This document shows, in pieces, positions 30,842 through 62,343 of a DNA stretch of 64,000 nt. The DNA lies in the sequence record PQ850628.1. The stretch is one strand, 5' to 3'. A program made the position numbers and the translations under genes. Every line of letters starts with the position of its first letter. Positions within the stretch are counted from its first letter, which is position 1. The notes beneath the pieces are model-generated. The model saw only the letters and a list, made by a program, of their open reading frames with translations. It searched no databases and was not told the DNA's origin. The DNA is from Escherichia phage StefiGeyer_Bas88.

Positions 30842-31057
30842 TTAATAATGAATCTTTTTATAAATCATGTTGCTTCCACTTTCTGTTTCAATCCCTTTCT
30901 GAATTGTAATCTTAGAAGCGCCAGTGTTAGCAATTTTTAAAGCTCGCTTAAAGCGGCGAGCCTCTCTCCGTGTTGTATATGAGGAGAAACTAGGGATTGT
31001 GCTATCAAAATTAAACCACTTAACTGCCCAAAAAGTAATCCAAGGTTTCTTTTCCAT
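30842..31057 (-). CDS. small basic protein, W..W/TRxEAR/K(V/I)HY family (copy 3)
   Basis: WAVKW ... TRREARRFK ... KIHY, shared with 32922..33128 and 33128..33340. Confidence 0.4.
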   Translation of the reverse strand: MEKKPWITFWAVKWFNFDSTIPSFSSYTTRREARRFKRALKIANTGASKITIQKGIETESGSNMIYKKIHY

Positions 31058-31524: not shown

Positions 31525-31710
31525 TTATAGCATACAAAGAATAATAACAAGAGGTAGTGTTATAGCAAAATGTACCAGAACAACACTACCTAGCTTGATA
31601 GCTTTAACATCCTCTTCTGCTGGGTTTTCTTTAATTGCTAAATTTCGAGCTTTATATATAACAGTACCAACTATTAACGACCACACGGCCCACACAATCA
31701 GTGAAATCAT
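31525..31710 (-). CDS. small two-helix membrane protein (paralog 2)
   Basis: Two hydrophobic segments; similar to the adjacent gene (IVWAVWSLIVGTVIY vs IVWSVWAILVGGIVY). Confidence 0.4.
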   Translation of the reverse strand: MISLIVWAVWSLIVGTVIYKARNLAIKENPAEEDVKAIKLGSVVLVHFAITLPLVIILCML

Positions 31711-31719
31711 ATCAAACCC

Positions 31720-31941
31720 TTATGCAGTCAACAGGTGGAGAAGGAAAGGAATGACAACAGAGAAAATTACCAGAGCAATGCTGCCATGTTTAATGGGTTT
31801 AGCATCATTCGGATTTTCTTTAAGCATCTGTTTCTGAGCCAGATAAACGATACCACCAACAAGAATTGCCCACACAGACCATACGATTGCTGAAAACATA
31901 TTCACATCCTTATAAAGAAGTTCGCCCCACCTCTTAAACAA
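31720..31941 (-). CDS. small two-helix membrane protein (paralog 1)
   Basis: Tandem paralog of 31525..31710. Confidence 0.4.
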   Translation of the reverse strand: MFKRWGELLYKDVNMFSAIVWSVWAILVGGIVYLAQKQMLKENPNDAKPIKHGSIALVIFSVVIPFLLHLLTA

Positions 31942-32921: not shown

Positions 32922-33128
32922 CTAGTAATGAACCTTGCTAGTCAAGGATCCTGCACTGTTATTGTCACTTTGAAACCAACGATGAATCTCTACTTTTTCA
33001 GCGAGACCTAAAGCTTTTGTAGCTTTCTTAGCAAGACGAGCTTCTTGTCGAGTGTCGAATAATTTAAGACAATCACCACCAAGGTCTTTGTTAGCCCATT
33101 TAACGCGAACTGCCCATAATTTAGTCAT
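32922..33128 (-). CDS. small basic protein, W..W/TRxEAR/KVHY family (copy 2)
   Basis: WAVRVKW ... TRQEARLAKK ... KVHY. Confidence 0.4.
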   Translation of the reverse strand: MTKLWAVRVKWANKDLGGDCLKLFDTRQEARLAKKATKALGLAEKVEIHRWFQSDNNSAGSLTSKVHY

Positions 33129-33340
33129 TAGTAATGTACCTTTCCACTGATATAGAAACGACCTGATTTAAAGTCTTGAGCTTTGTGAATAGTGACCTTA
33201 TCAATTGTACTTTCACAGCTTAATAAGAATTTCTTATGAGCGCGAGCCTCTTGACGAGTATTCCTGATGCCCATTGATTCCGTACCACTACTCCAGCGGA
33301 TACGAACGACCCAACGTCTTTTCATTGTTCCAAACTCCAT
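33128..33340 (-). CDS. small basic protein, W..W/TRxEAR/KVHY family (copy 1)
   Basis: WVVRIRW ... TRQEARAHKK ... KVHY. Confidence 0.4.
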   Translation of the reverse strand: MEFGTMKRRWVVRIRWSSGTESMGIRNTRQEARAHKKFLLSCESTIDKVTIHKAQDFKSGRFYISGKVHY

Positions 33341-48305: not shown

Positions 48306-48557
48306 TTACTCTGTGGCTCCGTCAAAGCGAAGGATTGCTGTTGGAACAGGGATTACAACCATGTCAATCTCTAAACGGAAAAGATGTCCTGTACTTAGCT
48401 GAACTGCTGTTACAGGTTTAGCGATACCACCAACAGATGCTGAGGGGATTCGAATAAAGAAATCCCCCGGATATTCCGTTGCACGAAATACATCTCCCGG
48501 TGACATATCCTTTACTTGGATAATTGATTCAGGAGGGGTTTTATTAGCAATTTGCAT
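48306..48557 (-). CDS. small protein, PGDxF family
   Basis: SPGDVFRA motif shared with five other small ORFs. Confidence 0.4.
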   Translation of the reverse strand: MQIANKTPPESIIQVKDMSPGDVFRATEYPGDFFIRIPSASVGGIAKPVTAVQLSTGHLFRLEIDMVVIPVPTAILRFDGATE

Positions 48558-48818: not shown

Positions 48819-49232
48819 TTAAACAACGAATTGGAACGCTTCGTATCCAAACTTATAAGAGAAGTCGTGCTTAAACTTCACTACACGACCACGATCACGG
48901 AAAGATTTCAGACGGCTGCTGAACCCAGCCATTGGCTCAGGGTCAATAGGACTACGAATCTTCATAGCTACAGAATGCAGCTTGAAGCGTTTACCAGTGC
49001 TACAGGCCATCATCACATACTCCATACGAGTAGTCCAGATGTTGAGCACCATGCTTGTTTTCTCCGCTGACCAACCAGTCTTACGGGCGATTTCCTTATG
49101 GATGTTAAGCTCCAAAGGAAGAGGGAATTGCTTGTTGAATGAAGCCGGATAAAGCTTGACCAGAAGATCAATGTTTTCTTTATACGTGAGGTAGGCCAAT
49201 TTCTTGCTTACGTTGGGGAATTTCCCAGACAT
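48819..49232 (-). CDS. ProQ/FinO-domain RNA-binding protein candidate
   Basis: KKLAYLTYKENIDLLVKLYPASFNKQFPLPLELNIHKEI...MVLNIWTTRMEYV...GKRFKL aligns to the ProQ/FinO N-terminal domain pattern. Confidence 0.4.
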   Translation of the reverse strand: MSGKFPNVSKKLAYLTYKENIDLLVKLYPASFNKQFPLPLELNIHKEIARKTGWSAEKTSMVLNIWTTRMEYVMMACSTGKRFKLHSVAMKIRSPIDPEPMAGFSSRLKSFRDRGRVVKFKHDFSYKFGYEAFQFVV

Positions 49233-49430
49233 TTTTGAAGCTCCAAAACAGCGCCGAAAAGAGAGGCGTCATAGTAGCTAAAGGGAGGAGAGAAGAGGGC
49301 TTATTTACTTGCCTTTTTCTGTCCGTTAATGTACCAGATAACTGAGCCATCAGGCTGTCGTTGACCGAAGCCTTTCAAGTTAACCATTTCTTCTTCAGAG
49401 TAGGCACGTTTTCTCACTGATTTTCTCCTG

Positions 49431-49688
49431 TCAATAGAAGGTGTGTGTAGAGTCGTCGTTCATAGATAACCAAACAAAGAAGACAATCACACAGAAAGCA
49501 ATAATACCGAGAATTGCAAGGATTATAGTGTTAGCTAATGTGATATCTAACACGCTTTGCAGATACATAAAGAACTGTACGACACCACATATCATTAGCA
49601 CGACACCAACAACAATGAGGAGCCAATATGTGCAGAGAAGGGCTGCATCCAATAGTGACACATATTTTGGATGATCTTTACGTTTCAC
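49431..49688 (-). CDS. small membrane protein (2 TM)
   Basis: Two long hydrophobic helices. Confidence 0.35.
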   Translation of the reverse strand: MKRKDHPKYVSLLDAALLCTYWLLIVVGVVLMICGVVQFFMYLQSVLDITLANTIILAILGIIAFCVIVFFVWLSMNDDSTHTFY

Positions 49689-49944
49689 TAACCTTCTCCA
49701 CTAAATCCAGAGTTGCTGATTCAAATACAACACCAACTGGCATATTAGGTGCCATATTACGAACGTACCCACTCTGCATAGACACGGCTCGAGAGTATTC
49801 AGAACCGTTAGAGCTTTTGTTTACCTTCATGTAAAGGGTTTGTTCTTTATCTTCTTTAAGGGTAAAGAAAGAGCCGGGAAGAATCCCCTGAACAGTCAGA
49901 GGGATATCTGCAACATGAGTCTTATTGATAGTAAGAACTGTCAT
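49678..49944 (-). CDS. small protein, PGDxF family (divergent)
   Basis: GILPGSFFTL ... LYMKV pattern. Confidence 0.3.
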   Translation of the reverse strand: MTVLTINKTHVADIPLTVQGILPGSFFTLKEDKEQTLYMKVNKSSNGSEYSRAVSMQSGYVRNMAPNMPVGVVFESATLDLVEKVSET

Positions 49945-49947
49945 TGC

Positions 49948-50202
49948 TTATTCCTTAATAATTGCTTCAGCTTTAATAGGAATAACAGCAACATCTTTAC
50001 GAGGCGCTGTCGCTCGGCCTGTGTTAAGACAGGCTACAAGTCTATGCTCGTCCGCACCCTTAATGCACAAGCGAGTGGAGAACTCTGTAGAGAGTAAGAT
50101 GTATAAATCACCATCTTCACTGTTAGGGTACATGAAGCAATCCCCAAGTCGCAAAGCACTGAGAGGTATTGAATTTTTACCTGCTGGCATGTTAACTTTC
50201 AT
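49948..50202 (-). CDS. small protein, PGDxF family (divergent)
   Basis: ALRLGDCFMY ... LYILL pattern. Confidence 0.3.
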   Translation of the reverse strand: MKVNMPAGKNSIPLSALRLGDCFMYPNSEDGDLYILLSTEFSTRLCIKGADEHRLVACLNTGRATAPRKDVAVIPIKAEAIIKE

Positions 50203-50478
50203 TTAACCACCTTTAGTTATGGACCAATTTATGAGAGAACTCTCGGAAGAATGCTTTCATAAATAGGGGGAGGGGACGAATCCTCCCATATCCTATTAAT
50301 TAATGTTGCATGTAAGACCTAACAATCCGATGCTGTAGTGGATAGCGTAAAATGCTTACCGGCATTAAACCCAGCCCATGAGGGGCTTATGTGATTAAAA
50401 TGCTCAACATTGAGCGGTTAGTTGATAGGAGATCTGAAGTCCTATCTCAAAGGACTCTCGTAAGAATCCTTCACGATA

Positions 50479-50733
50479 TTACTTAGTAACAAAGATTGTC
50501 ACCTTATCCATTACCCAGCCTATCAACATAAGGAAAGGTAAGAAGAGGATAAAGATCAGCATAAAAGGCCAGAAGAATATCACCGTCCAAATAGAATATT
50601 CATCAGGCTTACCACTCCATGAGGAATGGAAGAAGTTGTAGAGTGTATTGGTTTTGAAGCACCATTTAACTACAATGGCTGCTAACCACCAACCAATAAC
50701 ATAAATCAGGAGGACATACGCTGCTGTAACCAT
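50479..50733 (-). CDS. small multi-TM membrane protein
   Basis: Three hydrophobic segments, Trp/Phe-rich. Confidence 0.35.
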   Translation of the reverse strand: MVTAAYVLLIYVIGWWLAAIVVKWCFKTNTLYNFFHSSWSGKPDEYSIWTVIFFWPFMLIFILFLPFLMLIGWVMDKVTIFVTK

Positions 50734-50960
50734 TCACCGTTCCATTGATAGTTGCGAGTTACCACGTTTCCGTGGATAAGGAAGTGCTGGCGGCGAAGGA
50801 TATCTTTAACGTTGTAATAGGCAGCGTTTCCGATATGACCTTCTTTGATAAGCCAGCGCAGATTACGAATATCAACCAACAACATCTTTACTTGCTGTTG
50901 GCATGAAGTTTGAGCCGCTGTTTCAAGTAGAGCTTTCGTATCAGAATAATGACCAGACAT
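50706..50960 (-). CDS. hypothetical protein
   Basis: 84-aa ORF. Confidence 0.3.
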   Translation of the reverse strand: MSGHYSDTKALLETAAQTSCQQQVKMLLVDIRNLRWLIKEGHIGNAAYYNVKDILRRQHFLIHGNVVTRNYQWNGEWLQQRMSS

Positions 50961-50961
50961 A

Positions 50962-51288
50962 TCACCACTCCTTACCTGTTGTTGTCACAGAGCCACCACA
51001 CAGCTCACCACGAGAGATGAAGTCATAACGTGACCAATCACCTTGCGTCTCCATGTCACGCTCTGCATAAGCCTTCTCGTCAACAGCACCGCCATTGGAA
51101 CAAGAAGCACCAGCATAACGCATATCAATTTCTCCACTAGGAATCTTCTCTCCGCTATGCCAACGGGAAACACAGACACCTTCTACAGATAATGCACACC
51201 ACCCATCAGGACGATGCTGTACGCAGCCTGTAAGAGCTACACAGGTGATAAAGATACAGGTTAAGGTAATTACACCACCCCAGCTCAT
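50962..51288 (-). CDS. lipoprotein (Cys-rich)
   Basis: Signal peptide ending in lipobox LTGC. Confidence 0.45.
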   Translation of the reverse strand: MSWGGVITLTCIFITCVALTGCVQHRPDGWCALSVEGVCVSRWHSGEKIPSGEIDMRYAGASCSNGGAVDEKAYAERDMETQGDWSRYDFISRGELCGGSVTTTGKEW

Positions 51289-51425
51289 GATCCCTCCTGA
51301 AGCGCCTTACGGCGGCTATCTCGCCAAGCCATCCATAGGTAGGTTTTAAGTTCTTCTCTTTCTTCTTCGCTGAACAGAGGAGAAGTAAAGATATCATCGA
51401 ACCACTCATTAAACTCAGGGGTCAT
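51285..51425 (-). CDS. small ORF coupled to lipoprotein gene (not in track)
   Basis: GGAGGG RBS, MTPEFNEWFDD..., stop overlaps the next ATG. Confidence 0.3.
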   Translation of the reverse strand: MTPEFNEWFDDIFTSPLFSEEEREELKTYLWMAWRDSRRKALQEGS

Positions 51426-51443
51426 AAACCCTCCTACGTTGAT

Positions 51444-51520
51444 TGGTGCACCCTACAGGATTCGAACCTGTAACCAACGACTTAGAAGGTCGCTGCTCTG
51501 TCCAATTGAGCTAAGGGTGC
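51444..51520 (-). tRNA. tRNA-Arg(UCU): tRNA-Arg, anticodon UCU, CCA encoded
   Basis: Folded by hand: acceptor GCACCCU/AGGGUGC, D-stem GCUC/GAGC, anticodon stem GCGAC/GUCGU with loop CUUCUAA, T-arm ACAGG-UUCGAAU-CCUGU, 3' ACCA. Confidence 0.85.
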
Positions 51521-51529
51521 TGAGTTTGT

Positions 51530-51739
51530 TTAACTGAAGATACGCAAGGCCACATCGTGACCGATATGACCGGGAACTTTATGCTGTTCTATTTTCAAAC
51601 AGCGTTTACAGATACGAGATACACGAGACTCTTTTCTCTCGACTGGAGTGTCTTTAGCGTGAGTGATTTGAAGGTTTTCAGTGATCACCCACTCGTGTTT
51701 ACATCCAGAATCTTCGGGCTTTTTCTTACGAAAGAACAT
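51530..51739 (-). CDS. small zinc-finger-like protein, MIKW/HEW family (copy 3)
   Basis: Internal start MFFRKKKPEDSGCKHEW ... CKRC; related to two upstream unannotated ORFs. Confidence 0.35.
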   Translation of the reverse strand: MFFRKKKPEDSGCKHEWVITENLQITHAKDTPVERKESRVSRICKRCLKIEQHKVPGHIGHDVALRIFS

Positions 51740-51747
51740 AACACCCC

Positions 51748-51912
51748 TTAAATCAGGTCTGTTTTCTTGTGCAGACCACACACTTTACAGCGAGAGTAGA
51801 TACGCAACCCTTGTCGCTCTCTGTCAGTAAGTTTATTTGTGATCGTCAGTTCATAAGTAGAAAGATCTTCCCACTCATGGAAATGAAATAGACGTTTGAA
51901 CCATTTAATCAT
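51748..51912 (-). CDS. small zinc-finger-like protein, MIKW family (copy 2, not in track)
   Basis: MIKWFKRLFHFHEW ... CKVCG; AAGGA RBS. Confidence 0.4.
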   Translation of the reverse strand: MIKWFKRLFHFHEWEDLSTYELTITNKLTDRERQGLRIYSRCKVCGLHKKTDLI

Positions 51913-51921
51913 AATGATTCC

Positions 51922-52083
51922 TTAGATTACATCACGATGACTAACATCACCACACACCTTACACTGAATAACGTAACGTGTACCCTTGTCATTGTTCCCA
52001 TCTGAATCTGTATAGACCAGAGGACGGGTGTTAATAATCTTCCAATCATGACAATGGAAGACACGCTTTAGCCACTTAATCAT
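51922..52083 (-). CDS. small zinc-finger-like protein, MIKW family (copy 1, not in track)
   Basis: MIKWLKRVFHCHDW ... CKVCG. Confidence 0.4.
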   Translation of the reverse strand: MIKWLKRVFHCHDWKIINTRPLVYTDSDGNNDKGTRYVIQCKVCGDVSHRDVI

Positions 52084-52084
52084 A

Positions 52085-52342
52085 TTAAGCACACGCCGGT
52101 AGTTCGATTAACTGAGGAGTACGACAAGGACCCTCTTCATACACACCGATTAACGTTGGCATGTAAGGCCCAGCGCACTGGTATTCGTCGAACAGCTCAT
52201 TATAAGTAGGCTTCCACTTCCACGCCCACACATAACCCATTCGATCAATAGCAATGTAACGAGTATTCAGAGGAACCTGCATCATTACATCACCAACTGC
52301 TATTACTTTCGTAATAACTGCTGCTCGGAAGTTTGTCTTCAT
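52085..52342 (-). CDS. hypothetical protein
   Basis: 85-aa ORF. Confidence 0.3.
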   Translation of the reverse strand: MKTNFRAAVITKVIAVGDVMMQVPLNTRYIAIDRMGYVWAWKWKPTYNELFDEYQCAGPYMPTLIGVYEEGPCRTPQLIELPACA

Positions 52343-52590
52343 GGCGCTTTAATCTCAATCTGAACGTTGACAACAAATACAGTATGGTTTGCACTGTACA
52401 CCGAAGTGCCTATGATTGGCTTGTCATCGCTGAGGATTTCAACAGCGTGCTCAAGGTTAATCTTCAGATGAAGACGACCTGATTCCATGAAGAAATCACC
52501 AGCACGTATCTCACCAAACTTGGCTGGCACACCGATAGAAGGTATCAGTATGTCAGTACGACCTTTACGGTCAAATAAACGATTGAACAT
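52339..52590 (-). CDS. small protein, PGDxF family
   Basis: EIRAGDFFMESGRLHLKI. Confidence 0.35.
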   Translation of the reverse strand: MFNRLFDRKGRTDILIPSIGVPAKFGEIRAGDFFMESGRLHLKINLEHAVEILSDDKPIIGTSVYSANHTVFVVNVQIEIKAP

Positions 52591-52599
52591 ATCAACCCC

Positions 52600-52809
52600 T
52601 TATGTGATATCAACCTCAAACCAACAGGTAAGAGCTTTTTCGTTGTTGCGCTTTGGTTCAAAGGATTTAGTAACTGATAACACCCGTCGCTGTTGTCCAT
52701 CAAACCAGATAGTTTCATTTCTTTCAGGAAGTAGGTTGTGTGCAGCACAAACGATTTCACCTAGCACAACCTGTCTGCCATCTTGTTTACGAACTAAACG
52801 AATGTTCAT
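52600..52809 (-). CDS. hypothetical small protein
   Basis: 69-aa ORF. Confidence 0.3.
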   Translation of the reverse strand: MNIRLVRKQDGRQVVLGEIVCAAHNLLPERNETIWFDGQQRRVLSVTKSFEPKRNNEKALTCWFEVDIT

Positions 52810-52851
52810 ATCAACCTCTCTTATTAGTTTAAGTAAGAGCTACCTCTTAAT

Positions 52852-52883
52852 TAAAACAACAAAGGCCACCCCGAAGGGCAGCC
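52852..52883 (-). terminator. rho-independent terminator (- strand)
   Basis: GGCUGCCC-UUCG-GGGUGGCC (two G-U pairs) followed by a U-rich run. Confidence 0.4.
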
Positions 52884-52888
52884 TCTTA

Positions 52889-53086
52889 TTAAGCACTACG
52901 CAACTTGTTATTCAAGAAGCGATCATCTGCGTTATAGATGAATGCAAAGAATAATTCTTTGGCTACATCCCTGTCACAATTAAGGCATTTAGAAACCTGT
53001 AACAACAGGCCATTGCGACTGTTAGGATGATCAATTATCGCAAGACGAATAATCTCACGAATACCAACATCATGCTCAGCCGCCAT
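52889..53086 (-). CDS. hypothetical small protein
   Basis: ORF with ATG at 53086. Confidence 0.3.
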   Translation of the reverse strand: MAAEHDVGIREIIRLAIIDHPNSRNGLLLQVSKCLNCDRDVAKELFFAFIYNADDRFLNNKLRSA

Positions 53087-53478
53087 AGAACCAATCACCT
53101 TGACGTTTACGGATGTTAGTTGTCAGACGAAGCATGGCAGACTCAATCTTCAGAGCACCATTTGCTACTGCATCCATACGTTCAGGACGGTTCATACGCT
53201 TGGTTGACTTCTTCATAACGTTCTCTCTTTGTTAGTGGAGGCAGGGTTGCCAGTTAATATAAAGGGAAGCCCTACACGTTAAGGCTTCCGCTTGTACAAA
53301 CTGTCGAGAACTTTCTACCCCTAGATTGTTCTCTATCCCAAACCGATACATACCCCTACATATCGGAATGCCATTCGAAAATTAACAGGTTTTAGTCTAT
53401 CACCGGATGTTTGAGACGAGTCTCGCCCTAGCGGTGAGCCATATGGCATTGAGATTATAGTTAATTGAGGAACATCCT

Positions 53479-53518
53479 CACATAGCCCTCTGATAAGCAC
53501 AAGGGCTATAAGTTGATG
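53479..53518 (-). repeat. conserved post-stop hairpin element (copy B)
   Basis: Near-identical to 48270..48305, again directly after the stop of a PGDxF gene. Confidence 0.5.
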
Positions 53519-53743
53519 TTACTTGTTGGTCAGTCGTACATTAGGCACAAGTCTGATTGCTGCTGTTTTCCTCTCTCCAGTAACCTTACCAGTAGAGAGA
53601 TTAACGTAATAAGCAGTGACTTCACCATCACCAGCTGTACGCATATAATAACTGCTTCCAGTTCTGTCAAACTGAAAAACGTCTCCCGGCTTTACATCAC
53701 CAAGAGTTGTGACGCTTTGCTTTTTATCAATATCAATCTTCAT
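53519..53743 (-). CDS. small protein, PGDxF family
   Basis: DVKPGDVFQF ... VPNVRLTN. Confidence 0.4.
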   Translation of the reverse strand: MKIDIDKKQSVTTLGDVKPGDVFQFDRTGSSYYMRTAGDGEVTAYYVNLSTGKVTGERKTAAIRLVPNVRLTNK

Positions 53744-53974
53744 TTAACCACCAATATTCGTTACTTGTACATTAGGTACAGAGATAACTTCATGATCTTC
53801 AGGTATCTGGAACAAAGTCCCCTGACCAAGACCAACGACACGGTGCATACCCTGCACATAGGTGTCTGTCTTTAGGTAGAGGTGTTCAGTGTTATTTTGT
53901 AATCGGAATACGTCACCCGGACGTAACTCACTAAGCTTTTTAGTAACAACTTCAGAGGAGAGATTGATTTTCAT
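53744..53974 (-). CDS. small protein, PGDxF family
   Basis: ELRPGDVFRL ... VPNVQVTN; tandem with 53519..53743. Confidence 0.4.
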   Translation of the reverse strand: MKINLSSEVVTKKLSELRPGDVFRLQNNTEHLYLKTDTYVQGMHRVVGLGQGTLFQIPEDHEVISVPNVQVTNIGG

Positions 53975-54162
53975 TTGATCAACACCAAATCAGTACGACG
54001 TTCGAAGGAAGGAGAGGATTCACCATTCCACTGAACAAGATAACAGAGAACACCATCAATCGTTGTTCTCCGACGAATAACACCTGTTTGAGTACCGCCA
54101 ACAAGGCGAACAGTGTGACCAGTGGTGAACTTAACCCTTGAGCGCATCCTCTGTTTCCTCAT
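53971..54162 (-). CDS. small basic beta-rich protein (start uncertain)
   Basis: C-terminal VKFTTGHTVRLVGGTQTGVI...CYLVQWNGESS looks like a small SH3/KOW-like domain. Confidence 0.3.
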   Translation of the reverse strand: MRKQRMRSRVKFTTGHTVRLVGGTQTGVIRRRTTIDGVLCYLVQWNGESSPSFERRTDLVLIK

Positions 54163-54436
54163 TCTGGCGTTTAATTTCTTCAGTGAGTTGCTTATTGAGA
54201 TCTTGAATACGCTTAATCTCCCAACCCAAAGAAGCCAAACGATCATTACGTGCTTCAATTTGCTCCTGCATCTTGACCAACTTGGAACGAATATCAGCAT
54301 TAAAGACTTCCTCTTGCTTAAGAAGGAACTCATAACGACGCTTCCAGCTTGCTGACTTATTACTTAAAGCAATAAATCCTAGAGTAGAAATCGTTACAGT
54401 GAGTACGAGAAGGAACTTATAAACCTCTAAAGTCAT
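54131..54436 (-). CDS. membrane-anchored coiled-coil protein
   Basis: N-terminal TM helix then charged coiled coil. Confidence 0.35.
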   Translation of the reverse strand: MTLEVYKFLLVLTVTISTLGFIALSNKSASWKRRYEFLLKQEEVFNADIRSKLVKMQEQIEARNDRLASLGWEIKRIQDLNKQLTEEIKRQNEETEDALKG

Positions 54437-54637
54437 ATCTTTATCCTCTTAAAGTAAGATATTATAAGAAATATTATTTAGAATTTATTATTTCTAAACT
54501 TAATTTCTATCAATAATTTTCAGAGGTCTATATACAGTCATTACCTCTGGTTCCGAATCACTACCACTTCTTACAGAGAAAATCATAAGTAGGTGATTTA
54601 TAAGGGAATTTAGTTTGTCAATCTTGGCACCTATGAA

Positions 54638-55024
54638 TCAGTCACGGGCACTATTATTGAACACTAAATCACCACAATACATTGGATTGGTATACCACTT
54701 TGGCACCCCTTCGCTCTTACTCTGAAAGTATGTACCGCTATATAAAGGCACATAACTTTTCTTCAGTGCACGTCTTGCAAGCTGCTCGCTCTCCCTGATT
54801 GACTTCTTCGTCAGAGGGTTATCATCACGAATTAGCTTTACATAACGTTTAAAAGGCTTCTCCTTCTTTAATAAGACGGGTATCCACTCGAACTGGTTTC
54901 GTTGTTTTATAACCTGCTCGGCAGTCAGTTTTCGTTGTGACATTCTGTTTATTACGGTATCCGCTACTAATGCTTTGCAAGCGGTTGGCTGATTCCCTGC
55001 CTCATAATAAATAGTCAATGTCAA
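54638..55024 (-). CDS. SleB/CwlJ-type cell-wall hydrolase-like protein
   Basis: LTIYYEAGNQPTACKALVADTVINRM and NQFEWIP resemble the Hydrolase_2 family pattern. Confidence 0.35.
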   Translation of the reverse strand: MTLTIYYEAGNQPTACKALVADTVINRMSQRKLTAEQVIKQRNQFEWIPVLLKKEKPFKRYVKLIRDDNPLTKKSIRESEQLARRALKKSYVPLYSGTYFQSKSEGVPKWYTNPMYCGDLVFNNSARD

Positions 55025-55073
55025 AAGTAGCTGGGCTGTCGTTATCAGAACTTACTACCCCCTTGTTTTACGG

Positions 55074-55103
55074 GCATAAAAAAGCCCCATCCGAAGACGG
55101 GGC
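55074..55103 (-). terminator. rho-independent terminator (- strand)
   Basis: GCCCCGUC-UUCG-GAUGGGGC followed by UUUUUAUG. Confidence 0.5.
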
Positions 55104-55260
55104 GACCTGAAAGAGTGAACATGACCTCACTCATTTAAGAATCCTCTCAAAGACTCTTAAAAAAGCGGCCTCGTTAAAGGCCCGGTCAAATGACCATCCA
55201 ATAGGGATTGAACCATGCCAATGATTCACAAAGGGCTTTCCCTTTAGGTATCACTAGCTA

Positions 55261-55286
55261 CGCAAAAAGCCGCACAAAGGCGGCAG
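55261..55286 (-). terminator. rho-independent terminator (- strand)
   Basis: GCCGC-CUUUGU-GCGGC followed by UUUUUGCG. Confidence 0.45.
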
Positions 55287-55344
55287 ACACAAAGACGCCC
55301 AAGAAGAGCGTCATAGTAGTTGACTACAGGTGTAGAGAAGAGGC

Positions 55345-55788
55345 TTACTTTACTCTCGCTTCCTTGATAGGGTCGATGTATTTTTCGACTCCCCATTTAT
55401 GCTGACTATCAGCGTAGAAAACATCAGGTGCACATTGGCTGGTAGTAGGGAAAGCTTTCGGTGGCTTAGTGCTACCTTTATTCTTCTGCTTACCCTTAGT
55501 GCGACCATTGCAATAAATCTCTAAACGTTTCTCTTCTTCTGTTTTCGCTGCACCGTTAGTTAACAGTGAACGGCTATGATCAGCTTTAAGAAGCGCATCA
55601 GCACGATGAACGCGACGCCCTAACACCTTTGCTACGGTAGAGGGTTTATGTTCTTGAGCGGCTTGTTTGATAGCCCTGCGTTTAATGCTACGTTTGCTAA
55701 TGTGGTTAGTAGCGACTGGCTTATCTTTTTCCAGTTCACTCATCGAGAACACACGCCCGCCTTTCATGCTGATTTTAGATTTAGCCAT
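55345..55788 (-). CDS. basic (Lys/Arg-rich) early protein
   Basis: 147 aa, highly basic. Confidence 0.35.
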   Translation of the reverse strand: MAKSKISMKGGRVFSMSELEKDKPVATNHISKRSIKRRAIKQAAQEHKPSTVAKVLGRRVHRADALLKADHSRSLLTNGAAKTEEEKRLEIYCNGRTKGKQKNKGSTKPPKAFPTTSQCAPDVFYADSQHKWGVEKYIDPIKEARVK

Positions 55789-55858
55789 TGCTTTATTCCT
55801 TTCGCTGATAAATTATATCGTGCAAGCCTTACCACATAGCAAGGCTTAACCAAATAAC

Positions 55859-56068
55859 TTAATCAATCAAACTAAACGACTTCCAGCTACGCGTAATTGC
55901 TACCCGTTCGCCATCAAAGAGAACACTTACAGAGATCAGTTTACCGCGACAACTGGATACCGTGGTAATACGTCCGGTTAATGCCTTGCCTTTATTCAGG
56001 TAGTGATAGCGGACACGACGCCCTAACAAACGAGTAGCTTTCTTCTCTAACGTGCTTAAGCTGGTCAT
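55859..56068 (-). CDS. hypothetical small protein
   Basis: 69-aa ORF. Confidence 0.3.
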   Translation of the reverse strand: MTSLSTLEKKATRLLGRRVRYHYLNKGKALTGRITTVSSCRGKLISVSVLFDGERVAITRSWKSFSLID

Positions 56069-56289
56069 TAAATAACCTCCCTATATTGGAGTGATCTTAC
56101 ACGACGATACATTACAGAAGATGCACTAATCGCCGCTTGTTTTCTTTCGTGCTCATGCTGATTTTTGTGCAGCTTATCCATCTCGGCATCATTACGACGT
56201 CGTTGTAAGATTCTACTACACTTGCGATGGTTGTTATTAGCACGCGCTTTCTTACAGATAGGGCAAAGGTGGGATTGAGTTAAGATCAT
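56068..56289 (-). CDS. small basic Cys/His-containing protein
   Basis: HLCPICKK ... HRKCS motif, Arg/Lys-rich. Confidence 0.3.
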   Translation of the reverse strand: MILTQSHLCPICKKARANNNHRKCSRILQRRRNDAEMDKLHKNQHEHERKQAAISASSVMYRRVRSLQYREVI

Positions 56290-56510
56290 TTGCGCAGTCC
56301 TAGTTTACGAAGGAATCGGCCTAACTTAGTTTCTTGCGTGATAGTGTAAGTAACAGAGTTATCAATCAAGGCTTGTTCTTGAATCGGCGACGGATACCAT
56401 TCACCGGTAAGAATGCACTTACACTCGATTCCATATTTATCGGTTTTTCGATAGGTCATGTTGTTGATGACGTTACGATACATCTTAACTTCTGTTTTCA
56501 ATTTTGGCAT
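56286..56510 (-). CDS. hypothetical small protein
   Basis: 74-aa ORF. Confidence 0.3.
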   Translation of the reverse strand: MPKLKTEVKMYRNVINNMTYRKTDKYGIECKCILTGEWYPSPIQEQALIDNSVTYTITQETKLGRFLRKLGLRK

Positions 56511-56564
56511 GGTGTTTATCTCTTTTTAGTTTCTTTGATTAGTACACTGAATCAATACACTAGT

Positions 56565-56598
56565 AAAAGAAAAAGGCGCTACCCTTTCGAATAGCGCC
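56565..56598 (-). terminator. hairpin terminator
   Basis: GGCGCTA...TAGCGCC perfect 7-bp stem flanked by A/T runs. Confidence 0.45.
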
Positions 56599-56619
56599 TT
56601 ATATGTTCTTTATTGTAAG

Positions 56620-57522
56620 TTATGCAGCTTGTTGGCGTGCTGCCATGATTGCGGCAGCTTTGCGCAATACTTCTTCCTCATCTGCCGCCGCCTTCTCGTT
56701 CGCTTTGACAGTTGAAGCATTTGAGATACGACCGCGAAGGTTAGACAATTTTTCAGTCATTTCGTTGATCGCTTTCTCCATTTCATCAGCGTATGAATCC
56801 AGAGATTCAAGCTCTTTGGCTGAGGCATTGATCAGATAGTCATCGCTGATAGATACAGTTGATGCGGTTACTTTCTTAAGGAGTGAATCAAAAGTTTTCT
56901 TAACTTTGCCTACCTCTTCACTCAATGCGATAGTGTTATCAGAAGATGCACCGTTGCGCTCATCAGCCAGTAAGGCCGCTTCAATACGGATTGCAGCCAA
57001 ACGATCAGTTAAGGCGTAAATATCCTGGCTGAAGTTTTCGCCAACTTTCTGGTTGATTTGGTTGGCAACTGGCACGTTGTCGTTGCAGCCTTTATAGAAA
57101 GCTGGATTATCGACCTGTACATCTTCACCTTTAGCAAAGCGTTCGAAGGAGTTAGACCAGCGGGCACGGTTTTGCTCCATTTTGGTTTTAACCTGTTCCG
57201 GTTTAGCATCTTCTTTCGCTTTCGCTTCACCTTCCAGATTAATCCATTTCTTTTTACCGTTCGCCCCGTCGCTGTTGTACTTGATAGGAGTGAGGAAAGA
57301 GATTGCAACCGCAATCACATCTAAATCACGGTAACGCTCAGTCAGTAAGAAATCTACCGCCCCCTGCAATACATCCAGCTTCTTACCGTTAGCACGGAAG
57401 TGCTGCAAATGACCTAACAGGAAGTTAGAAACATCTTGCTTAATCGCTGCGTTGTTGCTACGGATATTGTTAGCCAGTGCGTTAAAGCCAGATTCGTTAA
57501 CCAGATTGAAAGATTTAGCCAT
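56620..57522 (-). CDS. first gene of the leftward early block, function unknown
   Basis: 300-aa helical protein downstream of the tandem sigma70-like promoters. Confidence 0.4.
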   Translation of the reverse strand: MAKSFNLVNESGFNALANNIRSNNAAIKQDVSNFLLGHLQHFRANGKKLDVLQGAVDFLLTERYRDLDVIAVAISFLTPIKYNSDGANGKKKWINLEGEAKAKEDAKPEQVKTKMEQNRARWSNSFERFAKGEDVQVDNPAFYKGCNDNVPVANQINQKVGENFSQDIYALTDRLAAIRIEAALLADERNGASSDNTIALSEEVGKVKKTFDSLLKKVTASTVSISDDYLINASAKELESLDSYADEMEKAINEMTEKLSNLRGRISNASTVKANEKAAADEEEVLRKAAAIMAARQQAA

Positions 57523-62178: not shown

Positions 62179-62343
62179 ATGTGGAAGATTAAGTTACTAG
62201 TTAAGCAATTCAAATGTAGTCATGAGTATTATCCAATCCGGATATCAAGAGGTGATGAACGATTACACGCTTATTACAAGAGTACATGGAGATGTGCAGA
62301 CTGTGGTAAGGTGAGGAATAGTAAATGGGTGGATAGGCCTTAA
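62179..62343 (+). CDS. small Cys/His-containing protein
   Basis: GAGGA RBS before ATG at 62179; CSHE ... CADCGK motif. Confidence 0.35.
   Translation: MWKIKLLVKQFKCSHEYYPIRISRGDERLHAYYKSTWRCADCGKVRNSKWVDRP

Follow-up and report, generated by a model that had tools for sequence, protein, structure and literature searches.

Do the three small open reading frames (ORFs) that lie in tandem on the minus strand of Escherichia phage StefiGeyer_Bas88, at positions 51530-52083 of a 64,000-nucleotide stretch of its record (PQ850628.1; hereafter, the window), encode related zinc-binding proteins, and what would such proteins do? The ORFs were designated A, B and C in 5' to 3' order, and all three, which an earlier note had described as a zinc-finger-like trio, were reproduced by minus-strand reading and by the ORF list (Table 1). 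The comparisons below point to conserved genes for zinc-ribbon-like miniproteins, two of them paralogues and one a more distant relative, in an early-gene cassette. By nucleotide identity, the window is that of a phiEco32/ECBP2-like E. coli podophage (subfamily Gordonclarkvirinae): positions 51000-52700 were 92-96% identical to phages of this group, among them AnnaHegner_Bas87 (Bas87), vB_EcoP-101114UKE3, ECBP2, SU7 and EK010.

Codon-level comparison identified A, B and C as genuine, conserved genes for predicted proteins of ~6-8 kDa. Searches with tblastn placed the A/B frame in 96 phage records (129 places in total, with two copies in about a third) and the C frame in 74 records, and both frames were kept down to ~40-45% amino-acid identity in unrelated phages. 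The ratio of nonsynonymous to synonymous substitution rates (dN/dS) among relatives was mostly 0-0.16 for the three ORFs (A, 0-0.16 against close relatives; B, 0-0.46; C, 0.02-0.27), and only against ECBP2 or SU10 did it rise to 0.3-0.8. Variable sites clustered at codon position 3 in all three ORFs (8/4/28 at positions 1/2/3 for C). Conservation of the frames in relatives, the point on which the earlier note had staked its proposal, was thus found, with dN/dS well below 1. Against these data, we considered that A-C could be chance ORFs, decaying duplicates or remnants of homing-endonuclease zinc modules; their translation is predicted only, some depositors skipped annotating copies, and an HNH endonuclease gene is inserted nearby in phage O18-011. 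The purifying selection on A-C is strong, full-length frames were kept across phages of different families and hosts, start and stop positions were conserved with Shine-Dalgarno (SD) sequences present, and A-C were without similarity to HNH families. By frame conservation, purifying selection and family breadth, a non-functional origin is effectively refuted.

Starts and spacing were read from the minus strand. The mechanical ORF containing C opens at GTG 51781; the internal start proposed for C was borne out, ATG 51739 being the start in relatives and in distant homologues. The genes abut their neighbours as had been described, with 1 nucleotide between an upstream 85-residue gene (TAA at 52087-52085) and the ATG of A, 9 between A and B, and 8 between B and C; the stop codon of C is followed after 9 nucleotides by a tRNA-Arg gene on the same strand. 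SD sequences at good spacing were found for B (AAGGA, 51923-51919, overlapping the stop codon of A) and for C (AAGGGG, 51749-51744), and no obvious SD was found upstream of the ATG of A. A ribosome-binding site for each ORF, as first described, was therefore confirmed for B and C and not for A. Because its ATG lies 1 nucleotide past the upstream TAA and no obvious SD precedes it, ORF A probably starts by translational coupling to the 85-residue gene.

In GenBank records of relatives, all three ORFs are labelled 'hypothetical protein' (orthologous entries in Table 1). The A and B proteins of Bas87 are identical to those of the window and its C is 98.6% identical; one copy was left unannotated in the SU7, ECBP2, NC-B and YW01 records. 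The earlier remark that two of the ORFs are missed by a 60-residue cutoff is correct for a mechanical cutoff and does not extend to GenBank, where most relatives annotate these ORFs. ORFs of fewer than 60 residues are real genes in this phage group and are missed or mis-framed in some annotations (A/B genes in SU7, ECBP2 and NC-B; ORF D, described below, at phiEco32 gene 1).

Conservation of the proposed zinc ligands was scored in an alignment of 129 diverse members of the A/B family. The candidate ligands of ORF A are H10, H12, C41 and C44. Position 10 was His in 110 members and Cys in 16, position 12 was His in 126 and Cys in 2, position 41 was Cys in 128, and position 44 was Cys in all 129; Gly came directly after the second Cys in 123, and CxxCG was complete in 122. 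His and Cys were swapped only at ligand positions, and interchange limited to such columns is a classical metal-ligand signature. Sequences without the standard first pair had a Cys or His displaced nearby, or the order swapped to H-x-C. For ORF C, the proposed ligands are C13, H15, C44 and C47; in its family H15, C44 and C47 were invariant, C13 was present in 6 of 7 sequences and shifted by one residue in F4M1E, and H53 and G57-H58 were also invariant. A six-frame motif scan of the 64 kilobases (kb) for [C/H]-x-H-x-W...C-x-x-C returned exactly three sites, which were A, B and C. Beyond the ligands, the conserved positions of the A/B family were a hydrophobic N-terminus, W14, G34-x-R-Y, [R/Q]40 and a C-terminal K-x-x-D-[L/I]. 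The tip of the beta1-beta2 hairpin (positions 23-33) carried less than 1 bit of information and contained indels. The median isoelectric point (pI) of the family was 9.3.

The AlphaFold model of A (predicted local distance difference test score, pLDDT, 79, from a 9-sequence alignment) had a helix at residues 3-8 and strands at 14-25, 31-41 and 47-52, with a mean pLDDT of 57 over residues 1-10. The model of C (pLDDT 69) had strands at 17-26, 35-44 and 50-56 and a helix at 61-68. In both, a three-stranded sheet has the first ligand pair immediately ahead of strand 1 and the CxxC in the turn that joins beta2 to beta3. With moderate confidence, the models of A and C share a three-strand, zinc-ribbon-like layout to which C adds a C-terminal helix. 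Given near-invariant ligand positions, His/Cys exchange at them and a predicted zinc-ribbon-like sheet, A-C are strongly predicted to bind zinc, in keeping with the small zinc-binding domain first suggested from the His/Cys spacing. The term 'zinc-finger-like' is better replaced by 'zinc-ribbon-like', as neither model has a ligand-bearing helix. A C2H2 (beta-beta-alpha) finger was rejected: no ligand is carried on a helix, the His pair comes before strand 1 and the Cys pair sits within a beta-turn.

Known domains and proteins were compared with A-C. Neither the three ORFs nor the 129 family members gave a Pfam match at the gathering threshold; the best matches below it were CPxCG_zf (8 of 129 members, best E=0.0098) and DUF1660 (1 of 129, E=0.036). 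Membership in DUF1660, CPxCG_zf, zf-ChsH2 and Zn_ribbon_3CxxC was not supported, as no curated threshold was reached. Profile matches to PDB sequences were no better than E=0.33, and a literature search on phiEco32 gp107, small phage zinc-ribbon early proteins and Kuravirus/Gordonclarkvirinae transcriptomics returned nothing on these genes. No Pfam family, solved structure or paper that was found gives A-C a function. Classical zinc ribbons (NrdR N-terminal and TFIIS/TFIIB types) carry a canonical C-x-x-C in a hairpin and are modules of larger proteins, whereas A-C are standalone, with a first pair of H-x-H or C-x-H at one-residue spacing that comes after a short N-terminal helix; neither sequence nor structure comparison gave a significant match to classical zinc ribbons. 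DUF1660, phrog_3036, phrog_4188 and phrog_7696 resemble A-C in being small phage proteins (~50-70 residues) with a hydrophobic N-terminus, a ...G-H-x-W-like motif after it and a distal C-x-x-C-G. Weak cross-matches to phrog_3036, 4188 and 7696 were obtained with A, B, C and ORF D alike, and the likeness to DUF1660 and other small zinc-ribbon families of that kind is at most a loose superfamily resemblance.

Whether the three ORFs are copies of one gene was addressed by pairwise and profile comparison. A and B were 41% identical (E=6e-14), and both matched the phrog_8294 hidden Markov model (HMM) over positions 1-56 of 56 (A, residues 1-53, E=2.5e-24; B, residues 1-54, E=1.2e-17); the alignments identify them as true, old tandem paralogues. 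C matched a different HMM, that of phrog_13426 (E=3.1e-37, residues 2-69 on profile positions 3-74 of 78). The match of B to C was marginal (BLASTP E=4e-4). Alignment of C to A/B with hhalign gave a probability of 4% with small profiles and of 33% with deep profiles (E=4.5e-4, 41 columns in register spanning both ligand pairs), and the deep A/B family HMM matched the C of the window and that of each relative at E of about 1.5e-4. Reciprocal Foldseek searches with the A and C models gave weak family matches (E 0.1-0.2) and many shared BFVD neighbours. The 'trio' with a 'related third copy' thus stands as far as A and B are concerned; C belongs to a separate family, is 69 residues long with an extra helix, and has a remote link to the other two. 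From these alignments and models, C is probably of the same fold class as A/B and a distant relative of them, and not a third copy. Both phrog_8294 and phrog_13426 are catalogued phage families without functional, structural or metal-binding annotation, and the orthologues in Bas87, EcoN5, phiEco32 and SU10 occupy the same place in the early cluster upstream of tRNA-Arg with nothing different at the gene level. The catalogued families gain here a zinc-ribbon assignment, an estimate of family breadth and a record of cassette variability.

The breadth of the families was assessed by an exhaustive profile search of 1.84 billion representatives (clustered at 50% identity), which returned 138 A/B representatives at E<=1e-3; word-index homology searches had returned close relatives only. 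Nearly all members were standalone chains of 47-66 residues from metagenomes and unnamed sources, and named A/B homologues occur in the Pseudomonas phages ventosus and PaeP_Ls. A scan of viral contigs with a shallower A/B alignment gave 8 loci, of which three were new, distant and single-copy (L020-L022). C homologues were found at ~45% identity in Certrevirus/Vequintavirinae myoviruses, namely of Cronobacter (CR3/CR8/CR9), Pectobacterium, Enterobacter and E. coli. As judged from these searches, A/B form a large, phage-restricted family that is widespread in phages. One metagenomic protein of 182 residues (P0093) carried three consecutive A/B-type domains (CIHTW...CDVCG, HGHRWE...CKECG and CPPHKW...CEICG), a fused counterpart of the tandem gene arrangement. 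Two other long profile matches (P0090 and P0126) were discarded: they are unrelated repeat proteins whose resemblance ends at a CxxCG-like knuckle.

Synteny with phi32_107 and SU10_0105 places the trio in the early gene cluster. Both genes belong to early clusters whose transcription runs leftward from sigma70 promoters; in phiEco32 and SU10 these clusters hold diverse genes, mostly of unknown function and likely to serve host takeover (PMC8948821, PMC4281155). In the window, four strong, near-consensus sigma70-type promoters lie upstream of the trio (Table 1) and probably represent the early promoters known from phiEco32 and SU10 in a one-plus-three arrangement; strong terminator-like hairpins were found between them and the trio at 56600, 55103 and 52886. 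By location, A-C are predicted to be expressed early. The neighbouring genes all belong to PHROGs of unknown function. The tRNA gene, the one tRNA found in the whole window (tRNA-Arg(UCU), by ARAGORN; Rfam tRNA, 72 bits), is presumably cut from the same early polycistronic transcript, which would set the 3' end of the trio mRNA.

Gene content at this place varied between close relatives. A + B + C were present in the window, Bas87 and EcoN5; A + C in O18-011, with an HNH endonuclease before the tRNA; B + C in SU7; and one A/B-type gene, followed by the tRNA, in phiEco32 and SU10. EK010 had three genes, with a phiEco32-type allele in slot 1 and a B identical at the protein level, and ECBP2 had an A with a hairpin deletion and an extra gene (ECBP2_0102) before the tRNA. 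Variation in copy number and slot content between close relatives fits an accessory early-gene cassette, as expected for one. The C-tRNA-Arg junction was observed to be an insertion hot spot: in O18-011 (locus L011, 1937-2353) the HNH gene overlaps the tRNA start, and in ECBP2 (locus L009, 2097-2366) the junction holds an extra ORF of 89 residues.

The position of the cassette, which directly precedes the tRNA in the window and in all Gordonclarkvirinae relatives examined, raised a further explanation, in which A-C would be coupled to tRNA-Arg(UCU), protecting, processing or modifying it or countering an anticodon nuclease or other tRNA-targeting defence. No tRNA was found within 1.5-3 kb of the distant A/B homologues (ventosus, PaeP_Ls, L020-L022) or of the distant C homologues (CR9, F4M1E, POP15, A73), and genes are inserted between C and the tRNA in O18-011 (HNH) and ECBP2 (ECBP2_0102). 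Because distant homologues lack a neighbouring tRNA and relatives carry insertions, the adjacency is best read as lineage-specific synteny and not as function. Coupling to the tRNA was rejected as the main explanation, there being no tRNAs beside the distant homologues, and we regard it as very improbable.

We favor the reading that A-C are early accessory genes for zinc-ribbon-like basic miniproteins that act as binders of host factors, and give it a probability of roughly one half. A-C would be made in the first minutes of infection from a sigma70-dependent early transcript. One structural zinc per standalone basic miniprotein of 6-8 kDa would hold the fold; its ligands, the N-terminal [H/C]-x-H pair and the C-terminal C-x-x-C(G) knuckle, would sit together at one end of a sheet of three antiparallel strands. 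The variable hairpin would dock onto host proteins (takeover targets or defence components) and modulate or inhibit them, and recombination would reshuffle the one-to-three-gene cassette to match different hosts. We arrive at binders because of the conserved scaffold with a variable loop, the early accessory location, the turnover of copies and alleles, and the tiny, standalone form of the proteins. That A-C have a binding function at all is put forward weakly, and that the targets are proteins (for host takeover or anti-defence) seems to us somewhat less than an even chance. T7 Gp2 and Gp5.7 and phiEco32 gp79 resemble A-C in size class, early context, standalone form and variable presence (PMC8948821, PMC5569994); they are not zinc proteins and have no sequence or fold relation to A-C, so that the likeness is one of lifestyle only.

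Several points weigh against the favored reading. With pI values of 9.0-9.6, the proteins suit a role on nucleic acids no less than one on other proteins. Neutral drift of a structurally unconstrained hairpin would likewise leave a variable loop on a conserved scaffold. Metal binding and any partner of A-C are putative. Mass spectrometry of a polyethylene glycol-precipitated phage preparation detected 34 proteins without SU10 gp105 among them (PMC4281155), a weak test for a 6-kDa early protein.

The same basic charge leads to the principal competing account, in which A-C would be nucleic-acid-binding zinc ribbons that tune early-to-middle expression through DNA or RNA, promoters or the translation apparatus. 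All three proteins are basic (9.0, 9.4 and 9.6), as is the family at its median, and positive residues to either side of the second knuckle are conserved (R/Q40, K42 and K48-K/R50). Weak profile matches to the zinc ribbons of eIF2-beta, S26 and S14, a weak BFVD match named 'translation initiation factor 2 domain protein' and an NrdR-like resemblance point the same way. The DNA-binding zinc ribbon of NrdR and the small phage zinc-finger regulators Mu Com and P2 Ogr offer analogies in principle. We consider regulation through nucleic acids possible and, on balance, unlikely.

The hydrophobic N-terminus of the A/B family was also weighed as a membrane determinant. An N-terminal amphipathic segment (MIKWLKRLF; MLRLLQLLIFG in relatives) could address the proteins to the inner membrane, for example for superinfection exclusion or envelope modulation: the hydrophobic/basic pattern is family-wide (positions 2, 4, 5, 8 and 9), AlphaFold2 places a short N-terminal helix there at low confidence, and a putative lipoprotein and a membrane protein are among the neighbouring early genes. 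With ~9 residues, however, the segment falls far short of a membrane span, it may just cap the exposed face of the small sheet, and ORF C is without it, having a charged N-terminus (MFFRKKKPEDSG). A membrane role is improbable in our judgment, and the membrane, tRNA-linked and non-functional explanations are all less likely than those invoking protein targets or nucleic acids.

Binding of host factors could be extended to a wider set of proteins. A/B, together with the loosely linked families of C and D (phrog_8294, 13426, 7696, 3036 and 4188), may form a large unrecognised superfamily of zinc-ribbon miniproteins in which a rigid His/Cys-zinc scaffold presents a hypervariable beta-hairpin as a specificity loop, in exchangeable cassettes of one to four genes for inhibitors of defence or host machinery; we hold this to be a doubtful, speculative extension. 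If A-C are zinc-stabilised binders, a widespread scaffold of ~50 residues would be added to the phage effectors of host takeover and anti-defence. Cassette variation in Gordonclarkvirinae, including the BASEL phages Bas86-Bas91 on O-antigen-restored E. coli K-12, would then be a tractable system for finding targets. The result is a solid improvement in annotation; phage early regions commonly encode small hypothetical proteins rich in Cys and His.

Table 1. Coordinates of the ORFs, the tRNA gene and the promoters in the window, with annotated orthologues of the trio.
Feature	Position	Strand	Description
ORF A	51922..52083	-	ATG 52083, stop 51924-51922; 53 aa; pI 9.0; MIKWLKRVFHCHDW...QCKVCGDVSHRDVI
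ORF B	51748..51912	-	ATG 51912, stop 51750-51748; 54 aa; pI 9.4; MIKWFKRLFHFHEW...RCKVCGLHKKTDLI
ORF C	51530..51739	-	ATG 51739, stop 51532-51530; 69 aa; pI 9.6; MFFRKKKPEDSGCKHEW...ICKRCLKIEQHKVPGHIGHDVALRIFS
tRNA-Arg, anticodon UCU	51520..51444	-	ARAGORN and Rfam
Near-consensus sigma70-type promoters	61289-61262, 58866-58839, 58634-58607, 58466-58438	-	10-11/12 matches; upstream of the trio
ORF D	62179-62343	+	54 aa; MWKIKLLVKQFKCSHEYY...WRCADCGKVRNSKWVDRP; GAGGA SD 9 nt upstream; architecture parallel to A-C
Annotated orthologues of the trio			Bas87_0101/0100/0099; EcoN5 gp110/109/108; EK010 ORF17-19; phiEco32 gp107; SU10 gp105

ORF D (Table 1) matched phrog_7696 (E=1e-11), was present in 92 Gordonclarkvirinae-type records and had a dN/dS of 0.1-0.2. 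The A/B family HMM matched it at E=0.003, and hhalign aligned the CxxCG knuckle only. From these matches, ORF D is a probable fourth, distant member of the A/B set, by a relationship that is unproven. It is unannotated in phiEco32 and many other records; the deposited phi32_1 (296-496) is a frame that overlaps ORF D and is closed by stops in the window.

Downstream of the tRNA, an ORF of 108 residues (50962-51288, minus strand; phrog_4281) has a lipobox-like LTGC after a hydrophobic N-terminus and, judged by position, may be the counterpart of the 'putative phage lipoprotein' phiEco32 gp106/SU10 gp104.

RNA structure was considered for the trio and rejected as an explanation. The trio mRNA folded with z=-3.65, but values across the same-strand early region were -1.7 to -4.9, and Rfam returned nothing beyond the tRNA. 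Over 49000-57500 (minus strand), 9 of 13 segments of 554 nucleotides folded more stably than dinucleotide shuffles, at z values within that range, which suggests structured early mRNA in general and not a local element.

Other groups of small paralogous ORFs were found on the minus strand. Two tandem early ORFs at 53744-53974 and 53519-53743 (76 and 74 residues, E=2e-5) share a '...L.PGDVF...' motif and both match phrog_16423, 9955, 6570 and 7832 (unknown function); a weaker relative lies at 48306-48557. In the middle region, all-versus-all phmmer gave a tandem pair at 31720-31941 and 31525-31710 (E=2.5e-14) and a trio at 33128-33340, 32922-33128 and 30842-31057 (E about 3e-6). In this genome, tandem duplication of miniprotein genes seems to recur.
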